Shown: one piece after another, positions 15,070-51,974 of the stretch
How positions within the stretch are numbered: position 1 is the stretch's first letter
Layout: each line of letters opens with the position of its first letter
Origin: Deltaproteobacteria bacterium
GTDB taxonomy: Bacteria > Desulfobacterota > Desulfobulbia > Desulfobulbales > SURF-16
Assembly: GCA_029939635.1 (NCBI GenBank)
Contig: JAOZSN010000001.1
Location: 15,833-79,832, forward strand
DNA length: 64,000 nucleotides
Reading direction: 5' to 3'
Position numbers and translations under genes: made by a program
Notes under the pieces: model-generated
Told to the model about the DNA's origin: nothing
Databases searched by the model: none
The model's input: the letters and a program-made list of their open reading frames with translations, nothing else

Positions 15070-16407
15070 ATGAATATTGCACCATATATATTTTGCTTTT
15101 TCATAGTGATTTTGCCGCCTAAAGCGTATAGCGCTGAGCAGTCGTCCCCAGCCCACATGAACCTGGCTGACTGCATTGATCTGGCCTTGGCTCATAGCCC
15201 TGATCTCGGCATGGCCCAAGCAACATTTGCTCAGAATAAGGCCTTGCTTGACAGTGCCAAAAAGAATTTATTGCCCTCATTCTCAGCCCATTACTCCTAT
15301 AAATACCAACCAAACTCCATCTATTCCCCTACAGATGAGTACGGCTATGGCCTCACAGCAGAACAACCTATCTATCAAGGTAAAGCCATTGTCACCAGCA
15401 TCAAACAGGCGGAAATATCTCTCAACTCTGCCCAGAAAGGAACTGACCGTATCATCAACGAGCTCATTTTCCAGGTCTACACCAACTATTTCAAAGTACT
15501 CAGGGCAGTCAAGGTGGCCACGGAAGCTCAAAATTCCGTCAACCGACTTAAAAGCCATAGGAGTGACGCCAAGGCCTTTTTTGATGCTGGGATTATCCCT
15601 CGCAATGATTTCCTACAAAGTGATGTGGAACTTGCCCAGGGAGAGCAAGACTTTGTTGATGCCCAGATAGAAGCCTTTATTGCTCGGGCAGAGTTGAACA
15701 TTTTATTGGGCCGCGACACAGACATGGCTCTGCATCTTGAAGATAATTATGCCAAAGAGCAACGAGAAAACAACTGGGATGACATCCTCCACTCAGCCCT
15801 GACCAATCGTCCTGAAATTATGCAGGCCAAACTAGGGGCTGAAATGGCCAAGAAGGAAGTGACCATTAAAAAAGCGCCTTTTCTGCCTAAAATCTCCCTA
15901 TCAGCCTCCTATGACAAACGAGGAGACAGAGCCGACGGGGCGCGATCGGATGAACTAGGTTGGCCAGCAGAAGAGAAAACCGTCAGCGCGGTGGCCACAT
16001 GGAAATTATGGACATGGCAAAAAAATAAAAACGAGATTACAGCGGCAAAAAAAGATGTCCGCCGCGCAAAAAAGGCAATCGCCCAGACCATTGATCGTGT
16101 CAGCCTGGAAACCAGAATTGCCTTTCAACGCCTGCAGCAGACAGAAAAGAGAATCAAGGTATCCGAACGAGCCATTACCCACGCAGAAGAAAATTATCGT
16201 ATCACCCAGGCCCGCTACCAATCACAAATTGCCACGTCAACCCAGGTGCTGGATGCCCAGGCGCTGCTCACCCAGGCAAAAACAAACTACTATGACTCTT
16301 TTTATGGCCATAAAGTTGCTCTGGCCGCAGTGGAGAGAGCCTCAGGCCGTTTGGGACAAAAATATTCTCACACAACCAATGAATCAGCAGAACAAGGACA
16401 ACCATGA
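15070..16407 (+). CDS. TolC-family outer-membrane efflux/secretion duct protein
   Basis: Signal peptide (MNIAPYIFCFFIVILPPKAYSA). Typical OEP start LADCIDLALAHSPDL. Two repeated OEP halves with coiled-coil regions. 445 aa. Confidence 0.9.
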   Translation: MNIAPYIFCFFIVILPPKAYSAEQSSPAHMNLADCIDLALAHSPDLGMAQATFAQNKALLDSAKKNLLPSFSAHYSYKYQPNSIYSPTDEYGYGLTAEQPIYQGKAIVTSIKQAEISLNSAQKGTDRIINELIFQVYTNYFKVLRAVKVATEAQNSVNRLKSHRSDAKAFFDAGIIPRNDFLQSDVELAQGEQDFVDAQIEAFIARAELNILLGRDTDMALHLEDNYAKEQRENNWDDILHSALTNRPEIMQAKLGAEMAKKEVTIKKAPFLPKISLSASYDKRGDRADGARSDELGWPAEEKTVSAVATWKLWTWQKNKNEITAAKKDVRRAKKAIAQTIDRVSLETRIAFQRLQQTEKRIKVSERAITHAEENYRITQARYQSQIATSTQVLDAQALLTQAKTNYYDSFYGHKVALAAVERASGRLGQKYSHTTNESAEQGQP

Positions 16408-32876: not shown

Positions 32877-34229
32877 TTACTCCAACCCCAATTTTTTAAT
32901 CTTGCGCCATAAAGAAACACGATCAATACCCAGGGCCTTAGCTGCCTCTGTTTTATTAAAACCTGTCTCCTTTAAGATCCATTCGATATACGATTTCTCG
33001 ACCTCCTCCATGCTGGCGTATTTGCCATCGCTCTTTCTGAAGGTCTGGATATCCAGGCTGCGCAGGTCGTCGGGGATATGGCTCAGATCAAGAGTATCGC
33101 CATTAGCCAGGGCAACCCCACGCTCGATAATATTTTCCAACTCGCGGACATTGCCTGGAAAATCATAATGGCGCAGGGTTGTAAGAACCTCCGGGTCAAT
33201 CTCCATGACCTCTTTTCCCATGCTGCTATTATACTTGCCCAGGAAATACTGGGCTAGCAAGGGAATATCATCCTTGCGTTCAGAAAGCGGCGGGATTTTT
33301 AACGCCACCACATTGATCCGAAAGAAAAGATCTTGACGAAACCGGCCAGCATCCACCTCGGCCTTGAGATCCCGGTTGGTAGCAGCCACAAAACGGACAT
33401 TAACCTTAAGGGGTTGGGTCCCCCCCACCCGAACCACCTCTTTTTCTTGGAGTACCCGCAGAAATTTCACCTGCATGGATGGGGTCATCTCCGTTACCTC
33501 ATCTAAGAAAAGAGTGCCACCATCAGCCATCTCTACTAAACCTTTTTTTTCACCGTCAGCTCCGGTGAAGGCCCCTTTTTCATGGCCAAAAAGCTCGTTG
33601 GTAAGCAACTCCTCGCTAAAGGCCCCGCAATTTATCGACAGCATACCCTTATCATGACGCGGACTCTGCTGATGGATGTATTGGGCCAGTAACTCCTTGC
33701 CAGTACCTGATTCACCACTAACAACCACGTTGGTATCTGAAGAGGCTATCTGGCCTGCCATTTCCAGTAGGCCCTTCATCTCATGATTATGGGTAATGAT
33801 CTGTGATGGCCGATCTTTACCATCTATCTCCTGACGTAATTGTTCAACTTCAACCTTTAGTTGAAATTTCTGGGTGGCCTCGGCCACTAATTTACGCACC
33901 TCTGTCAGCTTAAAAGGTTTGGTGATATAATGATATGCCCCGGCCTTCAAGGCCTCTACTGCTGATTCCACCGTGGAGAAACCGGTTATCATAATTACTT
34001 CGGTCTGGGGAGATACTATTTTTACTCGCCGCAAGACCTGCATGCCATCCACCTGGGGCATCTTGAGATCAGTAAGGACCAAGGCAAATTGCTGCTTCTC
34101 TAAACAGGCACAGGCCCGTTTACCACTTTTTGCCGCAGTAACATTATAGCCCTCCTTTTTAAGGACATGGCAAAGATTTTTTAAGGCCACCGCCTCATCA
34201 TCAACGACTAAAATATCACTATTTATCAT
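32877..34229 (-). CDS. Sigma-54-dependent response regulator (NtrC/AtoC family)
   Basis: Receiver domain (ILVVDDE...DLKMPQVDG). GESGTGKE. GAFSEELLTNELFGHEKGAFTGA. C-terminal HTH NKTEAAKALGIDRVSLWRKIKK. Confidence 0.9.
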   Translation of the reverse strand: MINSDILVVDDEAVALKNLCHVLKKEGYNVTAAKSGKRACACLEKQQFALVLTDLKMPQVDGMQVLRRVKIVSPQTEVIMITGFSTVESAVEALKAGAYHYITKPFKLTEVRKLVAEATQKFQLKVEVEQLRQEIDGKDRPSQIITHNHEMKGLLEMAGQIASSDTNVVVSGESGTGKELLAQYIHQQSPRHDKGMLSINCGAFSEELLTNELFGHEKGAFTGADGEKKGLVEMADGGTLFLDEVTEMTPSMQVKFLRVLQEKEVVRVGGTQPLKVNVRFVAATNRDLKAEVDAGRFRQDLFFRINVVALKIPPLSERKDDIPLLAQYFLGKYNSSMGKEVMEIDPEVLTTLRHYDFPGNVRELENIIERGVALANGDTLDLSHIPDDLRSLDIQTFRKSDGKYASMEEVEKSYIEWILKETGFNKTEAAKALGIDRVSLWRKIKKLGLE

Positions 34230-35623
34230 TACTTCTCCCCAACAGGTAAGTGGATGGTAAATTTCACACCCTGACCATTGTTCGCGTCAACACTGATAGA
34301 ACCACCGTGCTGGACCAAAATATCATGAATAATAAAAAGGCCTAAGCCGGAACCATGGCCAGTATCCTTGGTGGTAAAAAATGGATCAAATATCTTCTCC
34401 CTTATCTGGGGTGGAATACCTGGGCCGTTATCACTAAAAACAATCTTTAACTCCGCAATAGAGGAGTAGGCCATAACCGTTATTATGCCTTGGCCCGCCA
34501 AGGCATCCAGGCTATTTTTTAAAAGATTAATAAAGAGCTGTTGAATTTTCTGTTTATCGGCAAAGATCATCACCCCTTGGTCAACAACAAGTCTAATCTC
34601 CACATCTTTGCCAATCTGACCATGGAACAGATCAATAATTTCTTGGAGCAGGGGGGACAGTAAATAATGGGCCCGATGAAATTTTTCTTCCCTGGCCAAG
34701 GAAAGCAAGGTGCGCACAATAGCGGAGGCACGCATGGTCTCCATGTTTATCTGACTGAGCAAATCAGCAGCAACCTCTCCCTCCTTTTCGCCCAGCTCCT
34801 CAGCAAGAATCTGGGCCGAACTGGATATATTTGAGAGGGGATTATTAAACTCATGGGCCACCCCTGCCAGCATGGTGCCAAGGCAGGCCAATTTTTCAGA
34901 GCGAACCAATTGCTGTTGACGCCGTTTCAATTCACGACTCATCTGATTAAAGGCTGAAATAAGGCTATTTATTTCCCGATTATCACTGCGAAACGAAGCC
35001 TCTACAAAATTACCAGTGGCAATGCTAGAGGCATGATTTTCCAACTGCTTTAACGACGAAACAATACCATGGCCCAAGATGGCGGCAATTGCCCCAAAAA
35101 AAAGCACCATCAGGGGCAATAAAAACAAGAGGGTATGGCGAATAAGACGTAATAGCCGATGAATAAATTGGTGCTGCTGGACAACAAGATTTTCAGCAAG
35201 TTCGGTTAACTGCCGACCCTGCACCCTCAGTTGTACTGCCAAGGCATCATTATTGCGATCCTGCTGAAAGGCACTGAAAATCGTCTCATACTCCCGGAGG
35301 ATCTCGTCAATCTTGGCGATTTGAGCCGGTGAACCTTCCCCCTTAAGCACCTCTTTATTGGCATTAAATTGTTGACGGGTTTTTATAAGGTAGGCCCGCC
35401 ATTGACTCATGGAACCATGATCGTGATAGAGGAGATAATTTTTCTCCATCCGCCGCATCTCCAAGGTGTTTTCCAAGACAACATCAACATTTTCAATATT
35501 AAGATGCTTCTCTTCCACCACATTGACGACCAAATAGGTAACAACTGAACAGCCTATCATAAAGAACAGGGCCAAGAAAAACCAAAAGGTTATCTTACTA
35601 CGAATACCACCAGGTTGACGCAT
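34229..35623 (-). CDS. Sensor histidine kinase (TM - sensor - TM - HAMP - HisKA - HATPase)
   Basis: H-box [17 protein letters not shown] boxes ([11 protein letters not shown]; DNGPGIP; GSGLGLFI). Start moved to [10 protein letters not shown] (ATG at 35623), preceded by GGGGCAGGAGTAAAT. Its stop overlaps the regulator start. Confidence 0.85.
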
Positions 35624-35694
35624 ATTTACTCCTGCCCCTGTTAAGCTAAACCACATTACCCCAAAAATTATCCATTTCCACCCTACCTCTTCGC

Positions 35695-35800
35695 GTTTCA
35701 TTTTGCAACACGATGTTCGCCACTGCAACATATCCAGCAAACCCTTTGTTCTCAGGAGATGAAAGCATCGCCCTCACCACCCAGTTGCATTTTGCAACAC
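35695..35800. promoter_or_regulatory. Two copies of near-palindrome GTT(T/G)CA-TTT-TGCAACAC, candidate enhancer-binding sites
   Basis: GTTTCATTTTGCAACAC at 35695-35711 and GTTGCATTTTGCAACAC at 35784-35800, 89 bp apart. An extra TGCAACA sits at 35724-35730. All are upstream of the -24/-12 promoter at 35865. Confidence 0.4.
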
Positions 35801-35864
35801 ATCCCACTCCTCAGCTAGCCCCAAAAAACCTGCCTGTATCTACATTTCATTATTTTCTTAACCA

Positions 35865-35880
35865 TGGCACGGGACATGCA
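35865..35880 (+). promoter_or_regulatory. Sigma-54 (-24/-12) promoter of the Ehr-type operon
   Basis: TGGCACGGGACATGCA: GG at 35866-35867 and GC at 35878-35879 with 10 nt between them. Near-consensus TGGCAC-N5-TTGCA. About 60 nt upstream of the first ORF and divergent from a sigma-54 two-component pair. Confidence 0.65.
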
Positions 35881-35940: not shown

Positions 35941-36351
35941 GTGCAACAAAATAGCATCAGCAGCAAAAAGGTTCTCTTAGTGACCAACATCCCGATTTTA
36001 CGGGAAGACATTCTCCACCACGGTACCAATCTCAGCAAGAGAATGGATGCCTCCTTAGAGGTGTTGCACCTTGTCCCGGAGGGTTCAACAGAAGATGCCA
36101 CTATGAGCTTTAAAACGGTTTGCAGCACGCAGAACTATGACGAGCCCATAGGCTATATCCAGCTCGTCAATGATCGGGGATTTACCAAAGAAACCGTTGA
36201 ATATGCCAAGAACAGACGAAACATTCTCTGCATTGTTTTATGCCTGCTTGACACAGGGAAATCATACAAGAAGGGCAGTCGCCAGAAGAGACTCAATGAG
36301 GTGACCAGCTCCTTAAACTACCCGGTGGTTTTAGCCACCGACGGCGCCTAA
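35941..36351 (+). CDS. Hypothetical protein, possibly universal-stress-protein-like fold
   Basis: 136-aa ORF with a GTG start. KKVLLVTNIP...LEVLHLVPEG...NILCIVLCLL alternation resembles a USP/adenine-nucleotide-alpha-hydrolase-like fold. Weak call. Confidence 0.45.
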   Translation: MQQNSISSKKVLLVTNIPILREDILHHGTNLSKRMDASLEVLHLVPEGSTEDATMSFKTVCSTQNYDEPIGYIQLVNDRGFTKETVEYAKNRRNILCIVLCLLDTGKSYKKGSRQKRLNEVTSSLNYPVVLATDGA

Positions 36352-36385
36352 GAAACATCAGCACAACATTAAAGTGAGGAACGAA

Positions 36386-36628
36386 ATGAAAGTTATTATT
36401 ACTATCACCCAAAATGTGACTTCCGTCAAAAATCAACTCTCCAGCAAATTTAACGGGACTGGAAGCATTACCGAGGCTGGCCCTTTTAAGACTGAGGCCG
36501 AGGCCCAGAACTGGAAGGAATTTATGATGAACCGGCGGGATAATTATGAAGAGATGCAGTTCCAATCATCGGTGGCCAGTGAGGCCTATTGGTTTGGCAT
36601 CACCATGGAAGGCCAAACGATCCAGTAA
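36386..36628 (+). CDS. Hypothetical 80-aa protein
   Basis: ATG at 36386 preceded by GAGGA. No family recognised. Confidence 0.45.
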   Translation: MKVIITITQNVTSVKNQLSSKFNGTGSITEAGPFKTEAEAQNWKEFMMNRRDNYEEMQFQSSVASEAYWFGITMEGQTIQ

Positions 36629-36663: not shown

Positions 36664-37845
36664 ATGAATACCTCATATACGCAGTCACATATCATCCGCA
36701 AACTGGCACCATTTAAGATTGATGGCATGGCCATACCTTATCCAGAGTTTGTCCCTAAACTATACAACCTCTGCATGACCTTGGGCTTTCGCAAGGGTCT
36801 TATCATGCCGTCCCGCGCTTTTTGCTCTGATGAGAACCAGGGCTGGCCCATCATCCTGCTCACCAAACATTTTGGCACCTTCCCCTTTAACCACGGGCGG
36901 GTTGGCGGTATTGTTGCCACGGATCGCCATGGACCCCATGCCAACCATGGTGAAGATTCGGTCATCGTCCAGGCCAGTCATGTGGGTTATGACCCGGAAT
37001 CAGGCAGTTACGGCAGCTGCACCCGCCCCAAGATGGCTGGCACCTGCATGTCAGTGTCCTGTGGCAAGATCACCCATGTCATCACCCCCTACTTGGAGCA
37101 ATATCAATTTGCCACTGATCGCATCTTTCTCCATCGGGATAAGGCTGGAAACCACCTGATAACGGTTAAGAATTCATTTATTGATTTTGACACCCATCCG
37201 GTCAAAGACGGCCTAGTACTGAGCCTAGAGAGTATTGTCAAACTCAACAATGATGGCAAGGTTGTTCCTATTGGTGCCATCAGTACCAGCCAGACCTACG
37301 AGGTCTCGGATGATTTCCGTAAAAAAATCAATGACACCGGCTATGTCTGGCAGAGTGGTGAAGGCGAAAAAATCGGCGCCCTGCTCAGCAGTGATCTCTT
37401 TCACTTCCGGGAAGACTTCCATGAAACTGATGAGTCGATCCTCTTAGAGAGAAACCTGATTGAATTTATGCCCACCATTGTTACCTCGCGCAACCCTCCC
37501 TTAAGGGCCGCCAAGATAAACATCCAGCTTGAATTTGCCAGGACAATGGAGTCAATCCGCCGAGGGCCTGAGTATGCTGGCAAGAACCTGCTCTATATCG
37601 CCGGCCTTAATATCGATATCTCCGAGAACGAGGATTACCCGGCCACCACCTATTTTGTCCCCTGGGCCGCCCATATCCAACTCCAGAATAATAAGGCCGC
37701 TGAATATATCCATCCGGTGGAACAGGATCAACTCTATAAACTGATCATGGAGCAGGACAGCATTAACCCGGATCAGGCCGACCTTAAAGAACAGATCGGC
37801 AGGATGCTGGAGGCACCACGGCTGGATATCCACTCACCAAAATAA
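36664..37845 (+). CDS. Conserved-looking unknown protein with Cys-x-Asp ... His ... Cys pattern (possible LCIB/beta-CA-like zinc site, speculative)
   Basis: 393-aa ORF with no signal peptide or TM. C54-S-D56 (AFCSDENQG), H106 (ASHVGYD), and C119/C128/C133 (SCTRPKMAGTCMSVSCGK). Confidence 0.7.
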   Translation: MNTSYTQSHIIRKLAPFKIDGMAIPYPEFVPKLYNLCMTLGFRKGLIMPSRAFCSDENQGWPIILLTKHFGTFPFNHGRVGGIVATDRHGPHANHGEDSVIVQASHVGYDPESGSYGSCTRPKMAGTCMSVSCGKITHVITPYLEQYQFATDRIFLHRDKAGNHLITVKNSFIDFDTHPVKDGLVLSLESIVKLNNDGKVVPIGAISTSQTYEVSDDFRKKINDTGYVWQSGEGEKIGALLSSDLFHFREDFHETDESILLERNLIEFMPTIVTSRNPPLRAAKINIQLEFARTMESIRRGPEYAGKNLLYIAGLNIDISENEDYPATTYFVPWAAHIQLQNNKAAEYIHPVEQDQLYKLIMEQDSINPDQADLKEQIGRMLEAPRLDIHSPK

Positions 37846-37957
37846 AAACCATTAAGCATATATTTATAAACTTTGCCGTCTTGTCAGAGAAGATGGCCAT
37901 AGAATTGTTATGCCAACGAAAGTCGGTATAATTAACAACATATTGGGAGGAGAATTA

Positions 37958-39916
37958 ATGGACACTTTGTTTGTGTCAATAGCTGTAATTTTTGCCGGAG
38001 GAGTCGTAGGACTGCTGCTCTATCGGCAATTTACCCTGATGAAACTGGTGGCCATTGCCACCAGTTCAGTGGGTTGCGGCATTGGTTTCATCTTTACTTT
38101 GTCGAAGCTCTTTGGTCAGGCATCAGGCTTAGATGTGAGCTATAACTGGCTTCATCTCTTCACCCTGGCCTTTAAGATTGATAGCGTTTCACTTTTTTTT
38201 CTCATCCCCATTTTCCTCATTCCGCCCCTGGCTCTGCTCTACAGCTTTCATTATCTGGAGAACAAGGAAAAACAGGCCAGGGCCGGAGTTAATTATTTCT
38301 TCTTCAGCATGCTCATTTGCGCTATGGCCCTGGTGGTCATATCTGCCAATATGATTACCTTTTTGCTGGCCTGGGAATTGATGAGTCTCTCATCCTTTTT
38401 TCTGGTCATGTATGATTATGAGGTCAAGAGTAACCGCAAGGCAGGTTATGTCTATTTCATCTTTGCCCAGGGCGGTGCCATGATGCTCTTTGCCGCCTTT
38501 GCCTTGATCTATAGCTATAATGGCAGCTTTGCCTTCGAGAGCATTGCCGCTATCCCAGATTCAGCCAAACTGCTGGTCTTTGTCCTGGCCTTTTTAGGCT
38601 TTGGCTCCAAGGCGGGTATCTTTCCGCTGCATATCTGGCTGCCCAAGGCCCATCCCGCCGCCCCAAGTCATGTCTCGGCCATTATGTCCGGGGTGATGAT
38701 TAAGATGGGCATCTACGGTATCTTTCGTATCTATCTCCTCCTTGATTCCCCCAGCCCCATGATCGGCCAGATTGTCCTTATTACTGGCATGATTACTGGC
38801 ATTCTAGGGGTGGTTTATGCCCTGGCTAAACAGGATATAAAGGAATTGCTGGCCTATAGTTCGGTGGAAAATATTGGTATCATCCTCATCGGTCTTGGCA
38901 TCGGCATGGTTGGTGTCTCCCAGCAGATTCAGGCCATGGCCTTTTTCGGCTTTGCCGGGGCCTTCATGCATGTCTTTAACCATTCCATCTTTAAATCCTT
39001 GCTCTTTATGGGGGCAGGCTCTGTCCTCCATCAGACCAAGACCAAGAATATTGAAGAGCTTGGTGGCCTGATGAAACGGATGCCTGTTACTGGCCGTACC
39101 TTTCTGGCCGGATCAGTGGCCATCTCCGGCCTGCCACCCTTTAGTGGTTTTATTGGTGAGTTTCTTATTTATTATGGGGCCTTCAACGGTCTTACCGCCA
39201 CCAAGTTACCCTATATTTTGGCCATCCTGGCCATTATTTCCTTAGCCGTTATCGGTGGCCTGGCCACAGCCTGTTTTACTAAAGTGGTTGGACTGGCCTT
39301 TCTAGGTGAGCCTCGTACGGAAAAGGCGGCCAACGCCAAGGAATCAGGCTTCACCATGGGTGCGGTAATGAGCATCATGGCCGTTGCCTGTTTGGTCATT
39401 GGCGTTCTGCCCCAGCCCTTTATCAGCCTGGCCTTTCAGGGCGTTGCTGATATTCCAGTTCTGGCTGGATTTAATACCGATGCCTTCATGGTCATTATCC
39501 GCCAGATCTCCTGCACCGCAGGTCTATTCATCGCCATCTTCATTGTGGTGAGTATCTTCAGAAAGATGCTCTACAGTGGCAAAGAGATTGGCAGCGGCGG
39601 CACTTGGGGCTGTGGTTTTACCCAACCCACCGTGCGCATGCAATATACTGGCACTTCCTATGCCGCAGAGATGGTGGATTTTTTCCGGCCCTTTGTCCCT
39701 TTCAAGGATATCTACAGCGGGATCAAAAAGATCTTTCCTGGCACAACCACCTGGGATACCAAGACCTTTGATATTGCCGACAAAAATTACCAAGAGCGCC
39801 TTATTGGGCCCATGATGACCTTGATGGCCAAATTACGCTGGATCCAACACGGTAATATCCAGCTCTATATCGGCTATATCATTGTGGCAATTATCGTCCT
39901 GCTTCTCTTTTTATAA
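37958..39916 (+). CDS. HyfB/NuoL-like antiporter-type membrane subunit
   Basis: About 16 TM. Proton-pump family motifs (WELMSLSSFFLV; FGSKAGIFPLHIWLPKAHPAAPSHVSA; AYSSVENIG). Start at the ATG at 37958 after GGGAGG. Confidence 0.9.
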   Translation: MDTLFVSIAVIFAGGVVGLLLYRQFTLMKLVAIATSSVGCGIGFIFTLSKLFGQASGLDVSYNWLHLFTLAFKIDSVSLFFLIPIFLIPPLALLYSFHYLENKEKQARAGVNYFFFSMLICAMALVVISANMITFLLAWELMSLSSFFLVMYDYEVKSNRKAGYVYFIFAQGGAMMLFAAFALIYSYNGSFAFESIAAIPDSAKLLVFVLAFLGFGSKAGIFPLHIWLPKAHPAAPSHVSAIMSGVMIKMGIYGIFRIYLLLDSPSPMIGQIVLITGMITGILGVVYALAKQDIKELLAYSSVENIGIILIGLGIGMVGVSQQIQAMAFFGFAGAFMHVFNHSIFKSLLFMGAGSVLHQTKTKNIEELGGLMKRMPVTGRTFLAGSVAISGLPPFSGFIGEFLIYYGAFNGLTATKLPYILAILAIISLAVIGGLATACFTKVVGLAFLGEPRTEKAANAKESGFTMGAVMSIMAVACLVIGVLPQPFISLAFQGVADIPVLAGFNTDAFMVIIRQISCTAGLFIAIFIVVSIFRKMLYSGKEIGSGGTWGCGFTQPTVRMQYTGTSYAAEMVDFFRPFVPFKDIYSGIKKIFPGTTTWDTKTFDIADKNYQERLIGPMMTLMAKLRWIQHGNIQLYIGYIIVAIIVLLLFL

Positions 39917-39947: not shown

Positions 39948-40865
39948 ATGGAATCAATACTATCATTTTGTTTCGCGGTTTTGATAGCGCCCCTCCTGCC
40001 TGCAGTTATCCAGAAGGTAAAGGCCTATTTTGCCGGCAAGCAGGGACCACCCCTGCTCATCAATTATTACACCATGATCAAGCTCTTTAAAAAGGGTTCG
40101 GTCTATTCAACCAGCACCAGCTTTGTCTTTAAATTAGGGCCAGTGGTGGGCTTTACCACCAGCATAATGATGCTGCTCTTCTTCCCCATGGCTGAGATCG
40201 CCCCCCTCTTCTCCTTCCATGGCGATGTGCTGATGCTCTTCTATCTCATGGGACTCGGTCGTTTCTTTACCATCATTGCCGCCCTTGATACTGCCTCGCC
40301 CTTTGAGGGCATGGGAGCAGCCCGAGAGGCGTTCTTCTCCACCCTGGCGGAGATGACAGTCTTTGGCATCTTGATCATCTTCTTTAAGCTCACTGGATCT
40401 TTAAGCTTTCAGGAGTTCTTTTCCGGTGACCATGTTATCAGCCTCATGGGCGAGTATGGCGCATTACTTCTCTTGGTAGTGGCTGGTCTCTATGTGGTTA
40501 TGCTCACCGAGAACTCCCGGGTTCCGGTGGATGACCCGGCCACTCACCTGGAGCTTACCATGATCCATGAGGTTATGATCCTCGATCATAGTGGCCCTGA
40601 TCTGGCCCTTATTGAGCTTGGCGCTTATTTCAAGCTCCTTTTTTATTCAGGTTTTCTGGCTCGCCTCATTGACCCGTTCCATTCCGCCAATGTCTGGATC
40701 AACAGCCTGCTCTTCTACAGTGTAGTAGCCTTTATTTACATCACCATCGGTGTGGTTGAGTCCATCACGGCCCGTTACAAGATGGATCTAGTCCCTAAAT
40801 TCATCCTGACCCCATTTATATTTGTCTTCTTTGTAACCATCTTAACCATGGGGGTTATGCAATGA
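39948..40865 (+). CDS. HyfC/HycD/NuoH-like membrane subunit
   Basis: 305-aa polytopic protein. Typical NuoH-family acidic loop (TENSRVPVDDPATHLELTMIHE). Confidence 0.85.
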   Translation: MESILSFCFAVLIAPLLPAVIQKVKAYFAGKQGPPLLINYYTMIKLFKKGSVYSTSTSFVFKLGPVVGFTTSIMMLLFFPMAEIAPLFSFHGDVLMLFYLMGLGRFFTIIAALDTASPFEGMGAAREAFFSTLAEMTVFGILIIFFKLTGSLSFQEFFSGDHVISLMGEYGALLLLVVAGLYVVMLTENSRVPVDDPATHLELTMIHEVMILDHSGPDLALIELGAYFKLLFYSGFLARLIDPFHSANVWINSLLFYSVVAFIYITIGVVESITARYKMDLVPKFILTPFIFVFFVTILTMGVMQ

Positions 40866-41548
40866 TTCAACTTACAGACGCTCTCTTCTCCATTAACCAT
40901 TTAGCAGATGCCCTGCTCTCTTTAACCATCCTTTCAGTATTGCTATCTCTGGGCTCCAATAGGCTGCTGACCCTGGTAAAGATCATGGCCTTTCAGGGTA
41001 TTGTGGTTTCCCTTATCCCTTTTTTCCTGGAACATCATGGCGAGATGCATACCGGCTCCATTGTCCTGCTGCAGATAATGCTGCTCATCAAGGGCCTACT
41101 CATCCCCGGCTTTATGTACACTGCGGTGCAAAAAATCAAGATCCAGCGAGAGGTTGAACCGGTAATTGGTTATAACGCCTCGCTCTTTGCCGGACTATTT
41201 TTTATCCTGGCAGCAGCCTTTATCACCGACCGCCTCCATATCTCCCTACCAGTGGAAAATGACCTATTACTGATTACCGCCATTACCACTCTGGCCGCTG
41301 GCCTCTTCCTGCTCATGAGTCGGAAAAAGGCCATCACCCAGGTCATCGGTTATCTGATGATGGAGAATGGTATCTATCTCATCGGCACAGCCCTGGCCAA
41401 AGAGACCCACACCATGTATGTCGTTGAATTTGGGGTATTACTCGATCTGCTGGTCGGCATCATGATCATGGGTATCATCGTCCACAACATCAACTCATCA
41501 TATGATGATGTGGATACAGCCCTGCTTGGACAATTAAAGGATAATTAG
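40862..41548 (+). CDS. HyfE-like small membrane subunit
   Basis: 228 aa, about 7 TM. Position and size match HyfE/NuoK-like components. Overlaps the upstream stop (ATGA). Confidence 0.7.
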   Translation: MIQLTDALFSINHLADALLSLTILSVLLSLGSNRLLTLVKIMAFQGIVVSLIPFFLEHHGEMHTGSIVLLQIMLLIKGLLIPGFMYTAVQKIKIQREVEPVIGYNASLFAGLFFILAAAFITDRLHISLPVENDLLLITAITTLAAGLFLLMSRKKAITQVIGYLMMENGIYLIGTALAKETHTMYVVEFGVLLDLLVGIMIMGIIVHNINSSYDDVDTALLGQLKDN

Positions 41549-41627: not shown

Positions 41628-43052
41628 ATGTTAGAACTTCTAATACTCATCCCCCTCCATGTCGGGATTATAGCCATGTTCCTGCCAGCTCGGCTGGGAC
41701 GGGGGCTTTTGGTGGTGACGGCCCTCTTGCATCTGCAGCTGTCGGTCTTTGCCTGGATGGGCAAACTCACCCCACAACTTCCTGATTATTTTGCCGTGAC
41801 CAATGAAGGCATCCTTGTCCTGCTGGTCACCTCCTTTGTTTTTCTCTTTATCTCACTCTATGCCGTCTCTTATATGAATGAGACCGAGATATCCAGTGAG
41901 CCCATTTATAATGGCTGCACCCTGCTCTTTTTAGCCACCATGTCTATGGTGGCCATGGCCGATCATCTCATTGTCCTGTGGATTGCCATTGAGGCCACCA
42001 CCCTTATGAGTGCGCCGCTGATCTTTTTGCATCGTTCCAAGACCGCCTTGGAGGCCACCTGGAAATATGTAATGATCTGCTCGGTGGGCATTGCCCTGGC
42101 CCTGCTCGGTTGCTTCTTTGTGGTCCTGTCCATGGATCTTGGTGGCGTCCACACCCCCATTACCTTCAGCTCCTTAAAAGAGATTGCCCCTCAGCTTGAT
42201 CCTGTCTGGTTAAAAGCTGGCTTTATCTTCCTGGTAATCGGCTATGGCACCAAGATGGGCCTGGCTCCCATGCATACCTGGCTGCCCGATGCCCATAGTG
42301 AGGCACCCAGCCCAGCCTCGGCCCTATTATCAGGAGCACTGCTTAACTGTGCCTTTCTTGGGGTCTATCGTGGCCATCAACTGATGTACCAGGCAGGTCT
42401 TGGTGATTTTTCCAGCGCTGTACTGGTTGGCTTTGGTCTGTTGTCCATGCTCATTGCCGCCATCTTCATCTTTAATCAGACCGGTTATAAACGGATGCTG
42501 GCCTATTCCAGTATTGAGAATATGGGTATCATCGCCTTTGGCGTTGGTATTGGTGGCCTTGCCACCTACGGGGCCATGCTCCACCTCATCCATCATTCCC
42601 TGATTAAATCATCACTGTTTCTCTCCTCCGGCAATGTTTTGCTGGGCTATGGCAGTAAGTTGATTGATAAAACCGGCAATATGGCCAAGCTTTTTCCCAA
42701 GACATTTACCGCCTTTTTTGCCGGATTTGCCGGTATCTCCGGCTTTCCGCCCTTTGGTATCTTTGTCTCGGAATTGCTCATCATTATCGGTGCCTTTCAA
42801 CAGGGTAAAACCTGGAGCATCAGCATCTTTATCCTGGCTCTCACCCTCATCTTTGCCGGGGCATCCCGCCTGGTGACCAAGATGTGTTTTGCCGCCTGTG
42901 ATGACCCTGAGGTCCTGGTCAAAGAAAATTGGGCCCGCACCCTGCCTTCTTTTGCCCTGCTGCTGGCCTCAATTACCCTCTGTATATGGTTGCCAGACCC
43001 TCTGTATCAAACCATTCTTTCAGCCATTGCGACAATTGGAGGTAACATCTAA
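41628..43052 (+). CDS. HyfF/NuoN/M-like antiporter-type membrane subunit
   Basis: GYGTKMGLAPMHTWLPDAHSEAPSPASALLSG and AYSSIENMG motifs. 474 aa. Confidence 0.85.
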   Translation: MLELLILIPLHVGIIAMFLPARLGRGLLVVTALLHLQLSVFAWMGKLTPQLPDYFAVTNEGILVLLVTSFVFLFISLYAVSYMNETEISSEPIYNGCTLLFLATMSMVAMADHLIVLWIAIEATTLMSAPLIFLHRSKTALEATWKYVMICSVGIALALLGCFFVVLSMDLGGVHTPITFSSLKEIAPQLDPVWLKAGFIFLVIGYGTKMGLAPMHTWLPDAHSEAPSPASALLSGALLNCAFLGVYRGHQLMYQAGLGDFSSAVLVGFGLLSMLIAAIFIFNQTGYKRMLAYSSIENMGIIAFGVGIGGLATYGAMLHLIHHSLIKSSLFLSSGNVLLGYGSKLIDKTGNMAKLFPKTFTAFFAGFAGISGFPPFGIFVSELLIIIGAFQQGKTWSISIFILALTLIFAGASRLVTKMCFAACDDPEVLVKENWARTLPSFALLLASITLCIWLPDPLYQTILSAIATIGGNI

Positions 43053-44563
43053 TGGAGTCATTTTTACAGATCCAAAATAACGAACGCCTTGCCCGGGCCG
43101 ACATTCCCCATCTGCCATTTTTCCAGTTCCGCAATGAAATGCTGGCCTTTGCCAAAGATGGTGCCCAGGTCGTCCAATTCTTCGCCTACGAAGAGGAGGG
43201 CAGCATGAAAATGCTGGCCGTCATGCGCACTGACAAGCTCTATGTGGCAGGCTGTGATGCCCCGGAAGATGACAAATTCCCAGCCCTCACCGCTGAATCA
43301 GAAAAATTCCACATGTTTGAGCGGGAGATTGGCGAGCAGTATGGTCTCAAGGCCGAAGGTCACCCGTGGCTGAAGATGGTACGCTATCACAAAAACTATA
43401 CTGGCAAGAAAGATGTCTTTGACAATGATTATAGTCAAGATATCCCCGGTAACTATCCCTATTTCACGGTGGATGGTGAGACCGTCCATGAGGTTGCTGT
43501 AGGGCCGGTTCATGCCGGAATAATCGAGCCTGGTCATTTTCGTTTTCAGTGTTGCGGTGAGCGGGTCTTTCACTTAGAAATCCAGCTTGGCTACCAGCAT
43601 CGGGGAGTTGAAAAACTCTTTGAATCCGTACCATTTAAACGGCTGCCCATCATTGCCGAGACCATTGCCGGGGATACTACCATCGGCCATAATCTCTGCC
43701 AGGCCCAGGCCATTGAGTCTCTGGCCGATCTCAAGGTGGATGAAGGGGCAAGCATTGTCCGCACCATTGCCTTAGAGATGGAACGGATTGCCAACCATAT
43801 CGGTGATCTTGGAGCCTTGAGTCTGGATGTGGCCTTTAACCCACCAGCGGCCTATTTTGGCCGGATCAGGGGTGAGTATCTCAACTTAAGCCAGATCTTA
43901 GGCGGAAATCGTTTTGGTCGTGGCCTGGTTCGCCCAGGAGGAGTTACCCATATCATGGGAGATGAGCAACGGCAATTATTAAGCGAAAAGCTGGCCGAAC
44001 TCACCCCTGAGGTAGAGCATGTTAATGATCTCATTTTCTCTGCCCCCAGTGTCATGGCTCGTTTTGATGATACCGGCACGGTACCCTATGAAAACGCTGA
44101 AAAGATCGGCCTCGTCGGTTATGCCGGGCGAGCCTGTGGTTTATCGTATGATGCCAGGGTCAGCTTCCCCACGGAGTGTTACGCCGACCTGCCCGCCAAC
44201 AGCAATGCCCGAACCGATGGTGATGTCTGTTCCCGGGCCACCGTGCGCCGTGAGGAGATCATGCACTCCACTGCCATCATCAACACCCTGCTGGAGAAAA
44301 AAGTGGATGCGGCCAGCTATATCCCGCCCGAGGTCAATTTAGCCCCGGACTCCTTTGTGGTGTCGGTTAATGAGGCCTGGCGTGGCGAGGTATCCCACTG
44401 CATTCTGACGGATGGCAATGGTGATATCCTGCGCTATAAGGTCAAGGACCCCTCCTTCCATAACTGGACTGGTCTGGCCCTGTCCCTGCGCGACACCGGG
44501 ATTTCAGATTTCCCCCTCTGCAATAAGAGCTTTAATCTCTCTTACTGCGGATTCGACATATAA
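43052..44563 (+). CDS. HycE/HyfG-like large subunit (NuoC-NuoD fusion) lacking the [NiFe] cysteine ligands: Ehr-type
   Basis: VGPVHAGIIEPGHFRF...LGYQHRG is collinear with HycE/NuoD. The position of RVCGICGFAH reads ETIAGDTTIGH (43658-43690). The position of DPCYSCTDR reads NLSYCGFDI, at the C-terminus (within 44510-44560). Confidence 0.85.
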   Translation: MESFLQIQNNERLARADIPHLPFFQFRNEMLAFAKDGAQVVQFFAYEEEGSMKMLAVMRTDKLYVAGCDAPEDDKFPALTAESEKFHMFEREIGEQYGLKAEGHPWLKMVRYHKNYTGKKDVFDNDYSQDIPGNYPYFTVDGETVHEVAVGPVHAGIIEPGHFRFQCCGERVFHLEIQLGYQHRGVEKLFESVPFKRLPIIAETIAGDTTIGHNLCQAQAIESLADLKVDEGASIVRTIALEMERIANHIGDLGALSLDVAFNPPAAYFGRIRGEYLNLSQILGGNRFGRGLVRPGGVTHIMGDEQRQLLSEKLAELTPEVEHVNDLIFSAPSVMARFDDTGTVPYENAEKIGLVGYAGRACGLSYDARVSFPTECYADLPANSNARTDGDVCSRATVRREEIMHSTAIINTLLEKKVDAASYIPPEVNLAPDSFVVSVNEAWRGEVSHCILTDGNGDILRYKVKDPSFHNWTGLALSLRDTGISDFPLCNKSFNLSYCGFDI

Positions 44564-44734: not shown

Positions 44735-45478
44735 ATGTTAAAAGTTATCAAAAACAGGATAGAACAGGGGCATCGAACCTCTAAATATCCCAAGGAACCC
44801 ATTGATCTCTACAAGAGATTTCGTGGTATGCCCAAGGTGGAGCAAAATTGTCCGCCAGAATTGGTGCAACGCTGTGCTGATGCCTGTCCCCAGGAATGTA
44901 TTGATGTTGACAGCAGGCAGATTGATCTAGGCCGCTGCGTCTTCTGCGGCCTCTGCGAAACATTATCCGAGGGCCAGTTTGTCAAATTCAGCACCAATTT
45001 TGAGATGGGTACGGCCAATAGGGATGATCTCTTCACCCATGGTGATCTCCCGGCCCTGGCCGAGCATTCCAAAAAGCATTTCAAGAAACTCTTTGGCCGC
45101 TCTCTGCAATTACGACAGATCTCTGCAGCAGGCTGTAACGCCTGTGAGGCAGACACCAATGTCTTGAATACCCCATTTTTTGACTTGCAACGCTTTGGTA
45201 TCCAGTTTGTAGCCTCACCCAGGCACGCCGATGGCATCCATGTTACCGGGCCAATCTCAGAGAATATGCGCCAGGCAACTATTACCACCTGGGAGTCTGT
45301 CCCTGCCCCCAAGGTAGTTATTGCCAGTGGGGCCTGCGCCATCTCAGGAGGGCCATTCCATGGCAGCCCTGAGATTGTCGGTGATCTTAACAAGTTAATT
45401 CCGGTGGATCTCTATATCCCCGGTTGCCCACCCCATCCACTAACCACCCTACACGCCCTGCTTAACTATTTTAAATAA
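44735..45478 (+). CDS. Fusion of truncated HycF/NuoI-like ferredoxin domain with HycG/NuoB-like small subunit
   Basis: The N-terminus IKNRIEQGHRTSKYPKEPIDLYKRFRGMP...CADACP...GRCVFCGLCE matches the HycF N-terminus. The C-terminal part matches NuoB/HycG: GCNACE, DLQRFGIQFVASPRHADG, SGACAISGGPF, YIPGCPPHP. Confidence 0.85.
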   Translation: MLKVIKNRIEQGHRTSKYPKEPIDLYKRFRGMPKVEQNCPPELVQRCADACPQECIDVDSRQIDLGRCVFCGLCETLSEGQFVKFSTNFEMGTANRDDLFTHGDLPALAEHSKKHFKKLFGRSLQLRQISAAGCNACEADTNVLNTPFFDLQRFGIQFVASPRHADGIHVTGPISENMRQATITTWESVPAPKVVIASGACAISGGPFHGSPEIVGDLNKLIPVDLYIPGCPPHPLTTLHALLNYFK

Positions 45479-45611: not shown

Positions 45612-45919
45612 GGTATCCTCCCTTTTGAAGTCGGTCGGGTCATTTTCCGTGATGCCTGTCATGCCTGACCCTGGTCGGCTTCATTTTTTCTTTACCCCAC
45701 CTCATTCTCAGTTTCCCAATTTCCCTAAGTTGTAATTTCCGCAAAACGTCATTAATCACCCTAATACAAGAAGATGAGCACGACTCATCCCCTCGGGTAA
45801 AATTAAAACTCCTTGACTTTCTCAACCAGAGAGCTATGAATGGTTGCTGTTGCAAATTGTAACAGAAGTACAATTTTTGATACTTATGTTATTACCTATA
45901 TATTGTTAAGGAGAAAATT

Positions 45920-46510
45920 ATGACTGACTCAATCATGCCCAGCCCAGACCTGGCCTTACAGCAACTTTTAGATGGCAATAAACGCTTTGTCAGCACCTCC
46001 CTCACCCACCCCAATCAGGATGGTGATCGTCGGATTGCCCTGGGTAATGGTCAGGCCCCCTTTGCTGCTGTTCTGGCCTGTGCAGATTCTCGTGTCCCAC
46101 CGGAGGTGCTTTTCGATCAAGGCCTAGGTGATCTATTTGTAGTACGGGTAGCCGGAAATATCCTCAACGACCAAATCTTAGGCAGCCTGGAATATACCGC
46201 CCTTCATTTAAATACCCCATTAATTGTGGTCTTAGGCCATACCAGCTGTGGTGCCATTGGCGCTGTAGCCCAAGGGGCTGAACTAGAAGGACATATTGCC
46301 TCTTTGGCACCTGCCATCCAACCTGCCGTTGATAAGGTTCGCGACATGGAAGGTGATCTAACCGATAATGCCGCTAAAGAAGTGGCACGGATGACAGCTG
46401 AAGAATTAATAAACTCTGAGCCAATCATGGCTAAGCTGGTTAAAGAGGGTAAGCTAAAGATTGTACCAGCCTTCTATGAGTTGGAATCAGGTGAGATAAC
46501 TATGCTGTAA
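45920..46510 (+). CDS. Beta-class carbonic anhydrase
   Basis: CADSRVPPE (CxDxR) and GHTSCGA (HxxC) zinc-site motifs. 196 aa. AAGGAG Shine-Dalgarno. Confidence 0.9.
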   Translation: MTDSIMPSPDLALQQLLDGNKRFVSTSLTHPNQDGDRRIALGNGQAPFAAVLACADSRVPPEVLFDQGLGDLFVVRVAGNILNDQILGSLEYTALHLNTPLIVVLGHTSCGAIGAVAQGAELEGHIASLAPAIQPAVDKVRDMEGDLTDNAAKEVARMTAEELINSEPIMAKLVKEGKLKIVPAFYELESGEITML

Positions 46511-50786: not shown

Positions 50787-51974
50787 ATGGCGAAGTTAAA
50801 GAAATCTCATAAAGGCAGGCCACAGGGCAGCTACTCCAACCCCAACCAGACGAAGGCAACCAGTCATACTGAGGAAGGAGGAGAGGAAACCCTGGAAGAT
50901 CTGGAAACCATCGAGACTGCCATGGAAGCATCCCAAAAAACTATTGTTTCCAGAGATAAAGAAATCGGTGAAGGGGCAGAACGTCCCAACGGCCCTGTTG
51001 GCCTGGATATCGGTACCAGCCATATCGTTATTGCCCAAAATGTTGGTCGTCATATCAGTACTGTCAACCAGCTCAATGCTTTTTTCACCATTCCTTATTC
51101 TAAATTTACCAAGAAAATTCTCATTGAAAACGAGATCACCTTCTTTGAGAAAAACGATCTGTTTTACATCCTGGGCTATTCAGCAGAAAATTTTGCCAAC
51201 ATGTTCAACACCAATACCCGCCGCACCATGGAACGTGGATTGTTGACCAATAAGGAAGATGAGGGCATTAATGTCCTGCAATCTATCATCAAGACCCTGA
51301 TCGCCAAGCCAGACAAGCCCAACGAAATAATCTGCTTCTCCTTACCCGGTAACCCGGCCGATAACTCCAGTTCTGTGGTCTACCATGAATCTATCTTGAA
51401 GATGTTCCTGGCCAGCCTCGGGTATCGTCCTATCTCCATCAATGAGGGATTAGCCACAGTCATGGCAGAGTTGGCCAATGACAACTTTACCGGCCTTGGT
51501 ATCTCCATGGGTGGTGGCATGTGTAATATCTGCCTATCCTACCTCTCTGTACCAGTACTCACCTTCAGCATCCAACGCGGTGGTGATTATGTCGACAATA
51601 TGGTCAGTGCCTCTGTAGGCGAGCCTGCCACCAGGATTAAGTTGATCAAAGAAAATTCCCTGGATTTAAGCCGTGCCCCCCAAGACCGGATAGAGACGGC
51701 TCTGGCCATCTACTACGTGGATCTCATCTCCCACCTGCTGGAGACCCTGGAACATGAGCTGAAGTCTTCAGATAAGATGCCAAACATCAATAACCCCATC
51801 CCCATTGCCTTGAGTGGCGGCACAGTGCTGCCTGCTGGTTTTAAAGAACTCTTTGAAAAGAGCTTAAAGAAAGTCAACCTGCCAGTGGAAATCTCAGATA
51901 TCCGCATCTCCGACGACCCGCTGAACACCACAGCCAAAGGTGCCATGGTCATGGCGTTGTCTGAAGAAATCTAA
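50787..51974 (+). CDS. Actin-like ATPase (ASKHA superfamily; MreB/MamK/Alp-like) with low-complexity N-terminal extension
   Basis: Phosphate-1 motif GLDIGTSHIVIA, connect motif INEGLATVMAE, phosphate-2 motif GISMGGGMCNI, adenosine motif ALSGGTVLPAGF, and C-terminal TAKGAMVMA. The first ~65 aa are charged and low complexity. Confidence 0.7.
   Translation: MAKLKKSHKGRPQGSYSNPNQTKATSHTEEGGEETLEDLETIETAMEASQKTIVSRDKEIGEGAERPNGPVGLDIGTSHIVIAQNVGRHISTVNQLNAFFTIPYSKFTKKILIENEITFFEKNDLFYILGYSAENFANMFNTNTRRTMERGLLTNKEDEGINVLQSIIKTLIAKPDKPNEIICFSLPGNPADNSSSVVYHESILKMFLASLGYRPISINEGLATVMAELANDNFTGLGISMGGGMCNICLSYLSVPVLTFSIQRGGDYVDNMVSASVGEPATRIKLIKENSLDLSRAPQDRIETALAIYYVDLISHLLETLEHELKSSDKMPNINNPIPIALSGGTVLPAGFKELFEKSLKKVNLPVEISDIRISDDPLNTTAKGAMVMALSEEI

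Follow-up and report, generated by a model that had tools for sequence, protein, structure and literature searches.

A divergent bacterial LCIB-like protein with a predicted zinc site embedded in Ehr operons of Desulfobulbales

Introduction

Proteins of the LCIB family, described as a subgroup of the beta-carbonic anhydrases (beta-CAs) (PMC9614477), behave unequally in vitro: CrLCIB and LCIC show no activity, and PtLCIB3 and PtLCIB4 are active (PMC8825250, PMC9614477). For the inactive CrLCIB, a "CO2 pumping" mode resembling that of the Cup proteins has been speculated upon (PMC8825250), and the one-way drive of CO2 to bicarbonate by LCIB-type proteins is a standing question. Energy-converting hydrogenase-related (Ehr) complexes, widely distributed relatives of complex I and of the energy-converting hydrogenases, have no known function or substrate, and no CA-like subunit is listed among their components (PMC6349859, PMC7894505). 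The present work concerns a 64,000-nucleotide (nt) stretch of contig JAOZSN010000001.1 from a Deltaproteobacteria bacterium of the Desulfobulbales, hereafter the window, and within it the gene at 36664-37845 (+), which encodes an LCIB-like protein and stands directly upstream of the membrane-subunit genes of an Ehr complex. Our analysis indicates with high confidence that this protein is a divergent bacterial member of the LCIB/theta-type family with an intact metal site. We further propose, with evenly balanced confidence, that it serves as an LCIB-type zinc CO2/bicarbonate enzyme dedicated to Ehr, the evidence for the coupling consisting of gene order. Our literature search returned no paper tying LCIB-type proteins to Ehr, cable bacteria, or hydrogenase-related complexes.

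Assignment to the LCIB family

The first-pass annotation, made from the sequence alone, had described a soluble protein of 393 amino acids (aa) encoded immediately upstream of membrane subunits, and had pointed to a spacing of residues reminiscent of LCIB-type zinc proteins. Its description of the gene was accurate, as the reading frame starts with ATG, the product contains no hydrophobic segment (the Kyte-Doolittle maximum over 19 residues is 0.81) and a gap of 64 nt separates the gene from that of the first membrane subunit, EhrA. The structural comparison that it had proposed was equally affirmative. An AlphaFold2 model of the protein, built on the family alignment, reached a predicted local distance difference test score (pLDDT) of 93.3 and a predicted template modeling score (pTM) of 0.91, and a Foldseek search of the PDB returned eight matches with E <= 0.001, all of which belong to the LCIB family (6kfs, PtLCIB4 and its mutants, CrLCIB, and LCIC). 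Entries 6kfs, 5b5y, 5b5z, 5b60, 5k5w, and 5b5x were matched with a probability of 1.00 and E-values from 1.4e-9 to 1.3e-4, and the next match beyond the LCIB-family set had an E-value of 0.03. The template modeling (TM) scores were 0.69-0.76 when normalized to the target and about 0.48 when normalized to the query. Alignment of our family with the N-terminal halves of canonical LCIBs using hhalign (probability, 93.7%; E, 1.9e-7; 120 columns) placed all ligands in register.

Hidden Markov model (HMM) searches, likewise proposed in the first-pass annotation, pointed in the same direction. The window protein matched Pfam LCIB_C_CA (PF18599) with 20.2 bits (E, 3.8e-4; residues 23-141 aligned to positions 1-120 of the 223-position profile), against a gathering cutoff of 25 bits, and the same model matched 23 of 43 diverse full-length family members (best E, 9.4e-9), with three relatives passing the gathering score (P0127, 29.2; P0143, 30.3; P0147, 28.7). 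The window protein alone found no match in NCBIfam or in a sequence search of the PDB, and the family profile found only a weak LCIB match in the PDB (E, 0.13), which we retained because its register agreed with that of hhalign. The low query-normalized TM-score and the restriction of the Pfam match to the first half of the model both fit an LCIB core broken by an insertion of about 120 residues, which in the AlphaFold2 model is rich in beta strands and spans about residues 142-265. The family comprises 2464 clusters at 90% identity and 321 at 50%, and among the records seen, the source-named database entries of bacterial members all read "hypothetical protein."

A chance Cys...His...Cys resemblance in an unrelated protein might be suspected from the single-sequence Pfam match below the gathering score and the empty single-sequence PDB search; however, Foldseek, hhalign, the family-wide Pfam matches, and the invariance of the ligands concur in refuting it, which leaves this explanation a practically negligible probability. 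The protein was also rejected as a classical beta-CA, since it gave no match to PF00484 at E <= 0.01, reads CSDEN instead of CxDxR, and has its His and Cys 27 residues apart rather than in an HxxC motif, in which it differs, as the first-pass annotation had observed, from the beta-CA encoded further downstream in the window, with its CADSR and HTSC. Membership in the CupA/CupB or DabA groups was rejected as well: no such match appeared in the Pfam, NCBIfam, or PDB sequence searches, and the Foldseek matches with E <= 0.001 were LCIB-family only.

Predicted metal site

The residues singled out in the first-pass annotation lie where it had placed them, with C54-S55-D56 in AFCSDENQG, H106 in QASHVGYD, and C128 and C133 in AGTCMSVSCGK, and the spacings are also as claimed (52 residues from C54 to H106, and 22 and 27 from H106 to C128 and C133). 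The zinc triad of PtLCIB4, which Jin and colleagues are said to have described in 2016, is reportedly Cys46/His102/Cys126. Counting along the chain of 5b60 with a 13-residue tag offset reproduced the numbering of the S47R and H88A mutations, and the conserved Cys, His, and Cys then fell at 46, 102, and 126. Sites were aligned HMM-to-PDB and with hhalign. In these alignments, FCSDE of the window protein is paired with LC(S/R/C)DE of canonical LCIBs (C54 with PtLCIB4 C46 and D56 with D48), ASHVGYD with (G/P)(S/P)HVGV (H106 with H102), and SCGK with CCGS or CACGA (C133 with C126), and H92 takes the position of His88, which PDB entry 5b5z carries in mutated form.

A census of the 165 homologs covering the sites revealed Cys at position 54 in all 165, Asp at 56 in 163, His at 106 in 164, and Cys at 133 in 163, so that the complete C/D/H/C set was kept in 162; Glu57 was found in 160 and His92 in 148. 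The resemblance to the LCIB zinc triad was thus upheld, and with it the expectation that the residues would be conserved among homologs. The third Cys had been left between C128 and C133. Because Cys occurs at 128 in just 100 of the 165 homologs, C128 was rejected as a zinc ligand, and C133, which belongs to the conserved C-G motif, stands as the predicted third ligand. Homology to the crystal structures suggests that the ligands would converge in one three-dimensional metal site.

The Arg of the CxDxR dyad is missing, as had been remarked, although its absence is not the oddity that it had seemed, since canonical LCIBs also lack CxDxR and this state is normal for the family. After the first Cys, CrLCIB and LCIC read CRDEV, as does the S47R mutant chain of PtLCIB4, and 9vzj reads CCDEV; because the mutant named S47R reads CRDEV, the wild-type PtLCIB4 should read CSDEV. 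By alignment, Ser55 of the window protein matches the constitutively active diatom PtLCIB4 and not the Arg of the inactive CrLCIB, and in the census, position 55 was Ser in 150 homologs, Ala in 12, and Arg in none. Judged from sequence, genuine CA activity of the LCIB-like protein appears fairly probable.

Genomic linkage to Ehr

In a scan of species-representative genomes, relatives were detected in at least 574 species, and the best 80 loci were analyzed, all from genomes named as, or resembling, Desulfobulbales and related Thermodesulfobacteriota. Enough flanking DNA for counting linkage was available in 69 of the 80 loci, one per species. The gene lies directly upstream of EhrA in 37 species, directly downstream of EhrS in 4, and within 10 kb of Ehr in 1, which amounts to direct adjacency in 41 of 69 species. 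Since this adjacency occurs in two gene orders, the linkage survives rearrangement, and the earlier suggestion that the downstream complex could include the protein as an accessory or a catalytic subunit finds its support in this conserved gene order. The standalone loci (27 of the 69 species) share no common alternative neighborhood. In Candidatus Electrothrix sp. YB6 (L001 6947-9855 and 11450-11947), the type I gene, type I being the form with the metal site, follows genes for CbiM/CbiQ-type metal transport and precedes a transposase fragment, and a ZnuA-type zinc ATP-binding cassette transporter is encoded a few kilobases downstream.

These counts bear in both directions on the view that the protein is an ordinary free, soluble LCIB-type CA, co-transcribed with Ehr for convenience and devoid of physical or energetic coupling, which might, for example, buffer pH or bicarbonate or supply CO2/HCO3- to carboxylases or the Wood-Ljungdahl pathway. 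The protein is soluble, as are the canonical stromal LCIBs, 27 of the 69 species carry the gene elsewhere in variable contexts, and eukaryotic homologs (with N-terminal extensions) as well as standalone bacterial copies share the full architecture. Nevertheless, the gene abuts Ehr in 41 species in two gene orders, and the zinc-less type II paralogs that occupy the same slot are hard to explain by soluble catalysis alone; we therefore regard a free CA as a serious alternative on the unlikely side.

The zinc-less sister subfamily

About 15 of the 150 cluster representatives listed belong to a sister subfamily, type II, which is 25-30% identical to the window protein and has lost the His as well as the CSDE and C-G motifs; not one Cys, His, Asp, or Glu is among its invariant residues. 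An AlphaFold model of a type II protein reached a pLDDT of 75, the loops of the former active site scoring under 50, and gave partial LCIB matches only. The hosts include Desulfobulbales (BRH_c16a, Desulfocastanea, and Desulforhopalus). The type II gene stands directly upstream of an Ehr operon in six of seven metagenome loci and in L101, and the Ehr subunits there are mostly 53-72% identical to those of the window (type II genes at L085 1123-2214; L089, L091, L093, L094, and L096, about 10001-11014; and L101 9001-10026). Homologs of the small gene orf84, the regulator, and the kinase that accompany the window operon precede the type II gene in five of the Ehr-linked loci. One genome of 6.36 Mb holds three type II paralogs, and of the two checked, one is Ehr-linked (L101) and the other standalone (L100). 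A hidden second copy, of type II, inside the type I loci was sought and not found. Genetic linkage of a CA-like protein to PF00361 antiporter-like subunits was thus observed for type I and type II alike.

The retention of a catalytically dead homolog in the Ehr slot argues for a protein-protein role, since binding is the one way in which such a protein could act, and in combination with the adjacency in two gene orders, it speaks for the LCIB-like protein being a physical partner of Ehr, a partnership that we judge to have an even chance of being real. The same observation lends itself to a non-catalytic reading, in which the protein would be a structural, assembly, or regulatory Ehr subunit (for example, for CO2/bicarbonate sensing or docking) and the Cys-His-Cys set would be structural or regulatory, which may also be so in CrLCIB and LCIC. 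That type II fills the same operon slot with none of the ligands, that the positions almost unchanged between type I and type II are found in the C-terminal half and not at the metal site, that CrLCIB and LCIC are without in vitro activity, and that one relative carries a fused receiver domain would all be in keeping with it. In type I, however, the C/D/H/C set and H92 are nearly absolute and position 55 is Ser or Ala and never Arg, which is the pattern expected from purifying selection on catalysis, and the disorder modeled in the active-site loops of type II points to decay and not to a non-catalytic design common to both types. We consider the non-catalytic reading improbable.

Carboxysome-linked, eukaryotic, and fused relatives

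Some distant relatives stand beside alpha-carboxysome operons with cbbLS-csoS2-csoSCA and shell genes (L083 10001-11131, Thiogranum sp.; L097 10001-11107; L086 1700-2767). The Thiogranum member (30% identity) has Ser in place of Asp at the D56 position; its gene has a LysR gene on one side and cbbL-cbbS-csoS2-csoSCA-csoS4-csoS1 on the other, and SbtA-like and P-II genes come after this operon. The gene of a member from a Pseudomonadota metagenome-assembled genome is divergent from a csoS1D-cbbLS-csoS2-csoSCA operon. Among eukaryotes, Paulinella micropora and the dinoflagellates Durusdinium trenchii and Togula jolla encode homologs with N-terminal extensions (P0128, P0139, and P0142) that are full-length, include the insertion domain, and are 36-42% identical; the Durusdinium proteins are already labeled LCIB-domain proteins in UniRef. 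Their sequences suggest that gene transfer between bacteria and algae may lie behind these homologs. In the bacterial member P0127 (486 aa), the LCIB-like part is fused to a C-terminal response-regulator receiver domain (residues 371-480), so that some proteins of the family may be controlled by phosphorylation.

Some enzymes with the beta-CA fold hydrolyze carbonyl sulfide (COS) or CS2 with the same ligand set, and a hydrolysis of this kind at the beta-CA-like zinc site would suit hosts that are Desulfobulbales (sulfur disproportionators, sulfate reducers, and cable bacteria). However, relatives occur beside Rubisco/carboxysome operons and in algae, the solved relatives are solely proteins of CO2-concentrating mechanisms, and the neighborhood contains no pointer to COS or CS2, which renders this alternative very unlikely.

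The operon, its control, and the Ehr subunits

The order of genes is orf136, orf84, the LCIB-like gene, and EhrABCDLS, with gaps of 22, 35, 64, 31, -4, 79, -1, and 171 nt (Table 1), and a terminator scan gave no match between the LCIB-like gene and EhrA and only weak matches inside the T-rich membrane genes. These genes probably form one sigma54-dependent operon. The promoter-like site TGGCACGGGACATGCA has one mismatch to TGGCAC-N5-TTGCW, and because the whole-window count of such matches is not above chance, its position is what recommends it. The kinase and regulator genes run divergently from the operon and are syntenic in the closest loci; a regulator homolog (36-39% identity) is also found upstream of the type II/Ehr loci, there on the same strand as the operon. 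TGCAAC-containing repeats (TTTGCAACAC...CACTGCAACA and GTTGCATTTTGCAACA) at 35700-35810 (+) cover the kinase start and the adjacent intergenic region and could be binding sites of a sigma54 activator. Neither orf136 nor orf84 matched Pfam or NCBIfam. The orf84 product is 49-56% identical in type I loci and 28-33% identical at the same position in type II/Ehr loci (L089 9697-9921, L093 9624-9848, and L094 9116-9346), and a further subunit, in loose analogy to CupS, may be encoded here.

A true [NiFe] hydrogenase downstream was rejected, as the Ni-binding cysteines are absent from EhrL: CGIC of HycE aligns to AGDT, and a C-terminal CxxC is out of register. Since EhrL lacks the NiFe cysteines despite its relatedness to HycE and MbhL, the complex was assigned to Ehr. 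In place of these cysteines, EhrL carries the signature (I/V)AGDT(T/S)IGH together with a C-terminal DFPLCNKSFNLSYCG(F/H)D (loci L004, L023, L030, L046, L085, and L096), which is essentially retained at 46% overall identity and, though more diverged, still recognizable at 34%; this retention suggests a different active-site pocket that may still be under selection. As read from the sequence, EhrS keeps the NuoB-type set of cysteines, so the iron-sulfur chain persists, and its N-terminal ferredoxin part has seven Cys with one CxxCxxC and one CP and probably binds one cluster, not two. EhrA also matched the NCBIfam model for hydrogenase 4 subunit B (4.9e-169), under its cutoff. The classical beta-CA past EhrS was rejected as a member of the conserved module, being syntenic in only 3 of the 80 loci; a sigma70-like site at 45877-45904 precedes its gene, which probably has its own transcript.

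Table 1. Genes and sites of the LCIB-like/Ehr locus in the window
Feature	Coordinates	Strand	Remarks
Sigma54-dependent NtrC-type response regulator (REC + sigma54 AAA+ + Fis HTH)	32877..34229	-	Pfam Sigma54_activat 4.6e-68, Response_reg 9.6e-30, HTH_8
HAMP histidine kinase, paired with regulator	34229..35740	-	Pfam HATPase_c 1e-24, HisKA, HAMP
Sigma54-type promoter-like site TGGCACGGGACATGCA (-24 GG / -12 GC)	35865..35880	+	Between the divergent genes, about 60 nt ahead of orf136
orf136, first gene of the cluster	35941..36351	+	Found by tblastn in the closest loci at the equivalent position (41-61% identity)
orf84, immediately before the LCIB-like gene; probable ATG at 36387	36374..36628	+	Conserved small open reading frame
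LCIB-like (theta / beta-CA-like) protein gene	36664..37845	+	393 aa, soluble, ATG start
C54-S55-D56: first zinc ligand (predicted), active-type Ser, catalytic Asp (predicted)	36823..36831	+	Aligns to PtLCIB4 C46-S47-D48
H92, equivalent of PtLCIB4 His88	36937..36939	+	Ungapped hhalign register GPHANHG vs AGHIPDG
H106, second zinc ligand (predicted), SHVGYD motif	36979..36981	+	Aligns to SHVGV / PHVGV / PHIAI of LCIBs
C128	37045..37047	+	Not a ligand candidate by conservation
C133, third zinc ligand (predicted), C-G motif, start of helix 134-153	37060..37062	+	Aligns to second Cys of CCGS / CACGA
EhrA, NuoL/HyfB-like antiporter-type membrane subunit	37910..39916	+	Pfam Proton_antipo_M 4.4e-59
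EhrB, NuoH-like membrane subunit	39948..40865	+	Pfam NADHdh 8e-29
EhrC, HyfE-like membrane subunit	40862..41548	+	NCBIfam hydrogenase 4 membrane subunit 2.5e-24, under cutoff
EhrD, NuoM/HyfF-like antiporter-type subunit	41628..43052	+	Pfam Proton_antipo_M 6.3e-48
EhrL, NuoC+NuoD / hydrogenase-large-subunit-like, without NiFe ligands	43052..44563	+	Best PDB relatives HycE (1.2e-39), MbhL
EhrS, NuoI-like ferredoxin domain + NuoB-like small subunit, fused	44735..45478	+	Pfam Oxidored_q6 4e-26; NCBIfam NuoB, HycF/HyfH-like
Classical cytoplasmic beta-CA (CADSR ... HTSCG)	45920..46510	+	Pfam Pro_CA 1.5e-37; 441 nt past EhrS

Elsewhere in the window, a giant protein of 2329 aa with cadherin repeats and DUF4347 is encoded beside a SecA-like ATPase paralog, a GAF-HlyD membrane-fusion protein, and an outer-membrane efflux protein (536-7525 (-), 8529-10541 (-), 12740-14500 (-), and 15070-16407 (+)), a cluster whose makeup suggests secretion machinery devoted to a giant adhesin. 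A Volactin family protein (50787-51974 (+); Pfam PF25216, E, 1.1e-84) is unusual for a Desulfobulbales-like contig.

Discussion

The reading that we propose would run as follows. One sigma54-dependent transcript would make the LCIB-like protein together with the Ehr complex, a relative of complex I and group-4 hydrogenases that keeps an iron-sulfur chain and two antiporter-like subunits and has lost the NiFe site. Cys54, His106, and Cys133 would bind zinc, with Asp56 and His92 at the positions of PtLCIB4 Asp48 and His88, and the protein would interconvert CO2 and bicarbonate in the cytoplasm. It would most likely dock peripherally to the NuoL/NuoM-like membrane arm, on the cytoplasmic side, where protons set free or taken up by the zinc-site reaction could be exchanged with the NuoL/NuoM-like channels, and proton flow through EhrA/EhrD, driven by ferredoxin or the proton-motive force, might pull CO2 + H2O <-> HCO3- + H+ off equilibrium. 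Such vectorial coupling is thinkable because CupA/B-NDH-1MS/NDH-1MS' and DabA-DabB already couple CA-like proteins to PF00361 subunits; energy-coupled hydration is nonetheless a tentative idea here, which we hold to be possible but doubtful. That the LCIB-like protein, perhaps with orf84, is a peripheral Ehr subunit forming a third independently evolved vectorial CA after CupA/B-NDH-1MS and DabAB seems to us somewhat unlikely as a complete statement.

Several observations weigh against a zinc enzyme dedicated to Ehr. The window protein falls short of the Pfam gathering cutoff, and the canonical CrLCIB, which has the same ligands, is inactive in vitro, so intact ligands are no proof of catalysis. 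The protein has no membrane anchor. The gene is carried with no Ehr nearby in 39% of the 69 species, including Electrothrix sp. YB6 and E. laxa, and the algal and carboxysome-linked relatives clearly work without Ehr. The nearby gene for a classical cytoplasmic beta-CA is a further difficulty, since that enzyme, if co-expressed, would dissipate an out-of-equilibrium bicarbonate pool, and such a pool would be of no use to a carboxysome in the Desulfobulbales, which lack one. Finally, the Ehr slot can be filled by a type II protein, which has no zinc site, so that CA chemistry may not be what Ehr needs. Type II does not by itself exclude CO2 chemistry, however, because the newest CupB structure argues for a metal-free site.

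If the reading of a vectorial CA formed with Ehr is true, it would give the enigmatic Ehr complexes a first function and provide a bacterial model for directional CO2 capture by LCIB-type proteins. Homologs wired to a proton-translocating complex would offer a tractable system for the question of one-way drive. The conserved CA-type partner supplies a concrete, testable hypothesis for Ehr and hints at CO2 handling by the complex, and the LCIB family is extended to anaerobic sulfur-cycling Desulfobulbales, the carboxysome loci of chemolithoautotrophs, and a zinc-less branch of pseudo-enzymes.

Compared with the LCIB, LCIC, PtLCIB3-4, and theta-CA proteins (5k5w, 5b5x, 5b5y, 6kfs, and 9vzj), the window protein shares the fold, the motifs C-S-D-E, (S/P)-H-V-G, C-G, and FG..F..GG, the Ser after the first Cys found in active PtLCIB4, and the link to inorganic-carbon loci. 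It differs in being only about 11-14% identical to the solved structures, with sequence similarity confined to the N-terminal half of the Pfam model, in its insertion of about 120 aa and longer C-terminus (393 aa against about 225-250), and in belonging to a non-photosynthetic anaerobe in which the gene is embedded in an Ehr operon. With the classical beta-CAs (PF00484) it has in common the predicted Cys-His-Cys ligation and the Asp two residues past the first Cys, but not the Pfam match, the HxxC motif, or the Arg of CxDxR.

The systems in which CO2 hydration is tied to antiporter-like subunits resemble the locus in organization. In CupA/CupS-NdhF3/D3 and CupB-NdhF4/D4 (NDH-1MS and NDH-1MS'), a soluble CO2-hydration protein is encoded with NuoL-/NuoM-like subunits of a ferredoxin-type complex-I relative without NuoEFG, a small extra protein is present (CupS there, orf84 here), and the coupling idea is the same, a proton from the hydration site entering an antiporter-like channel. 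Unlike the window protein, for which a Cys2His site is predicted, CupA/B have a disputed metal site, show no kinship to it in sequence or fold (LCIB_C_CA was its only Pfam match, and LCIB-family structures were its only Foldseek matches with E <= 0.001), and belong to NDH-1 rather than Ehr. The DAB system (DabA/DabB; MpsAB) also couples a beta-CA-like zinc protein genetically to a PF00361 NuoL-like subunit, and relatives of the LCIB-like protein occur in carboxysome-bearing chemolithoautotrophs; however, DabA is a separate beta-CA-like family whose proton path is built by a transmembrane "finger" of its own, the window protein has no hydrophobic segment, and a single antiporter-like partner there contrasts with a redox complex of six subunits here. 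The complex itself resembles known Ehr complexes, such as that of Geobacter sulfurreducens (GSU0739-45), with the same EhrA/B/C/D/L/S set and the same loss of the Ni/Fe-binding cysteines, to which the window and many other Desulfobulbales add an LCIB-like gene of type I or II, orf84, and the sigma54 two-component pair. What is new against all of these systems is the bacterial long-insertion subfamily, its zinc-less sister branch, and, above all, the conserved embedding in Ehr operons.

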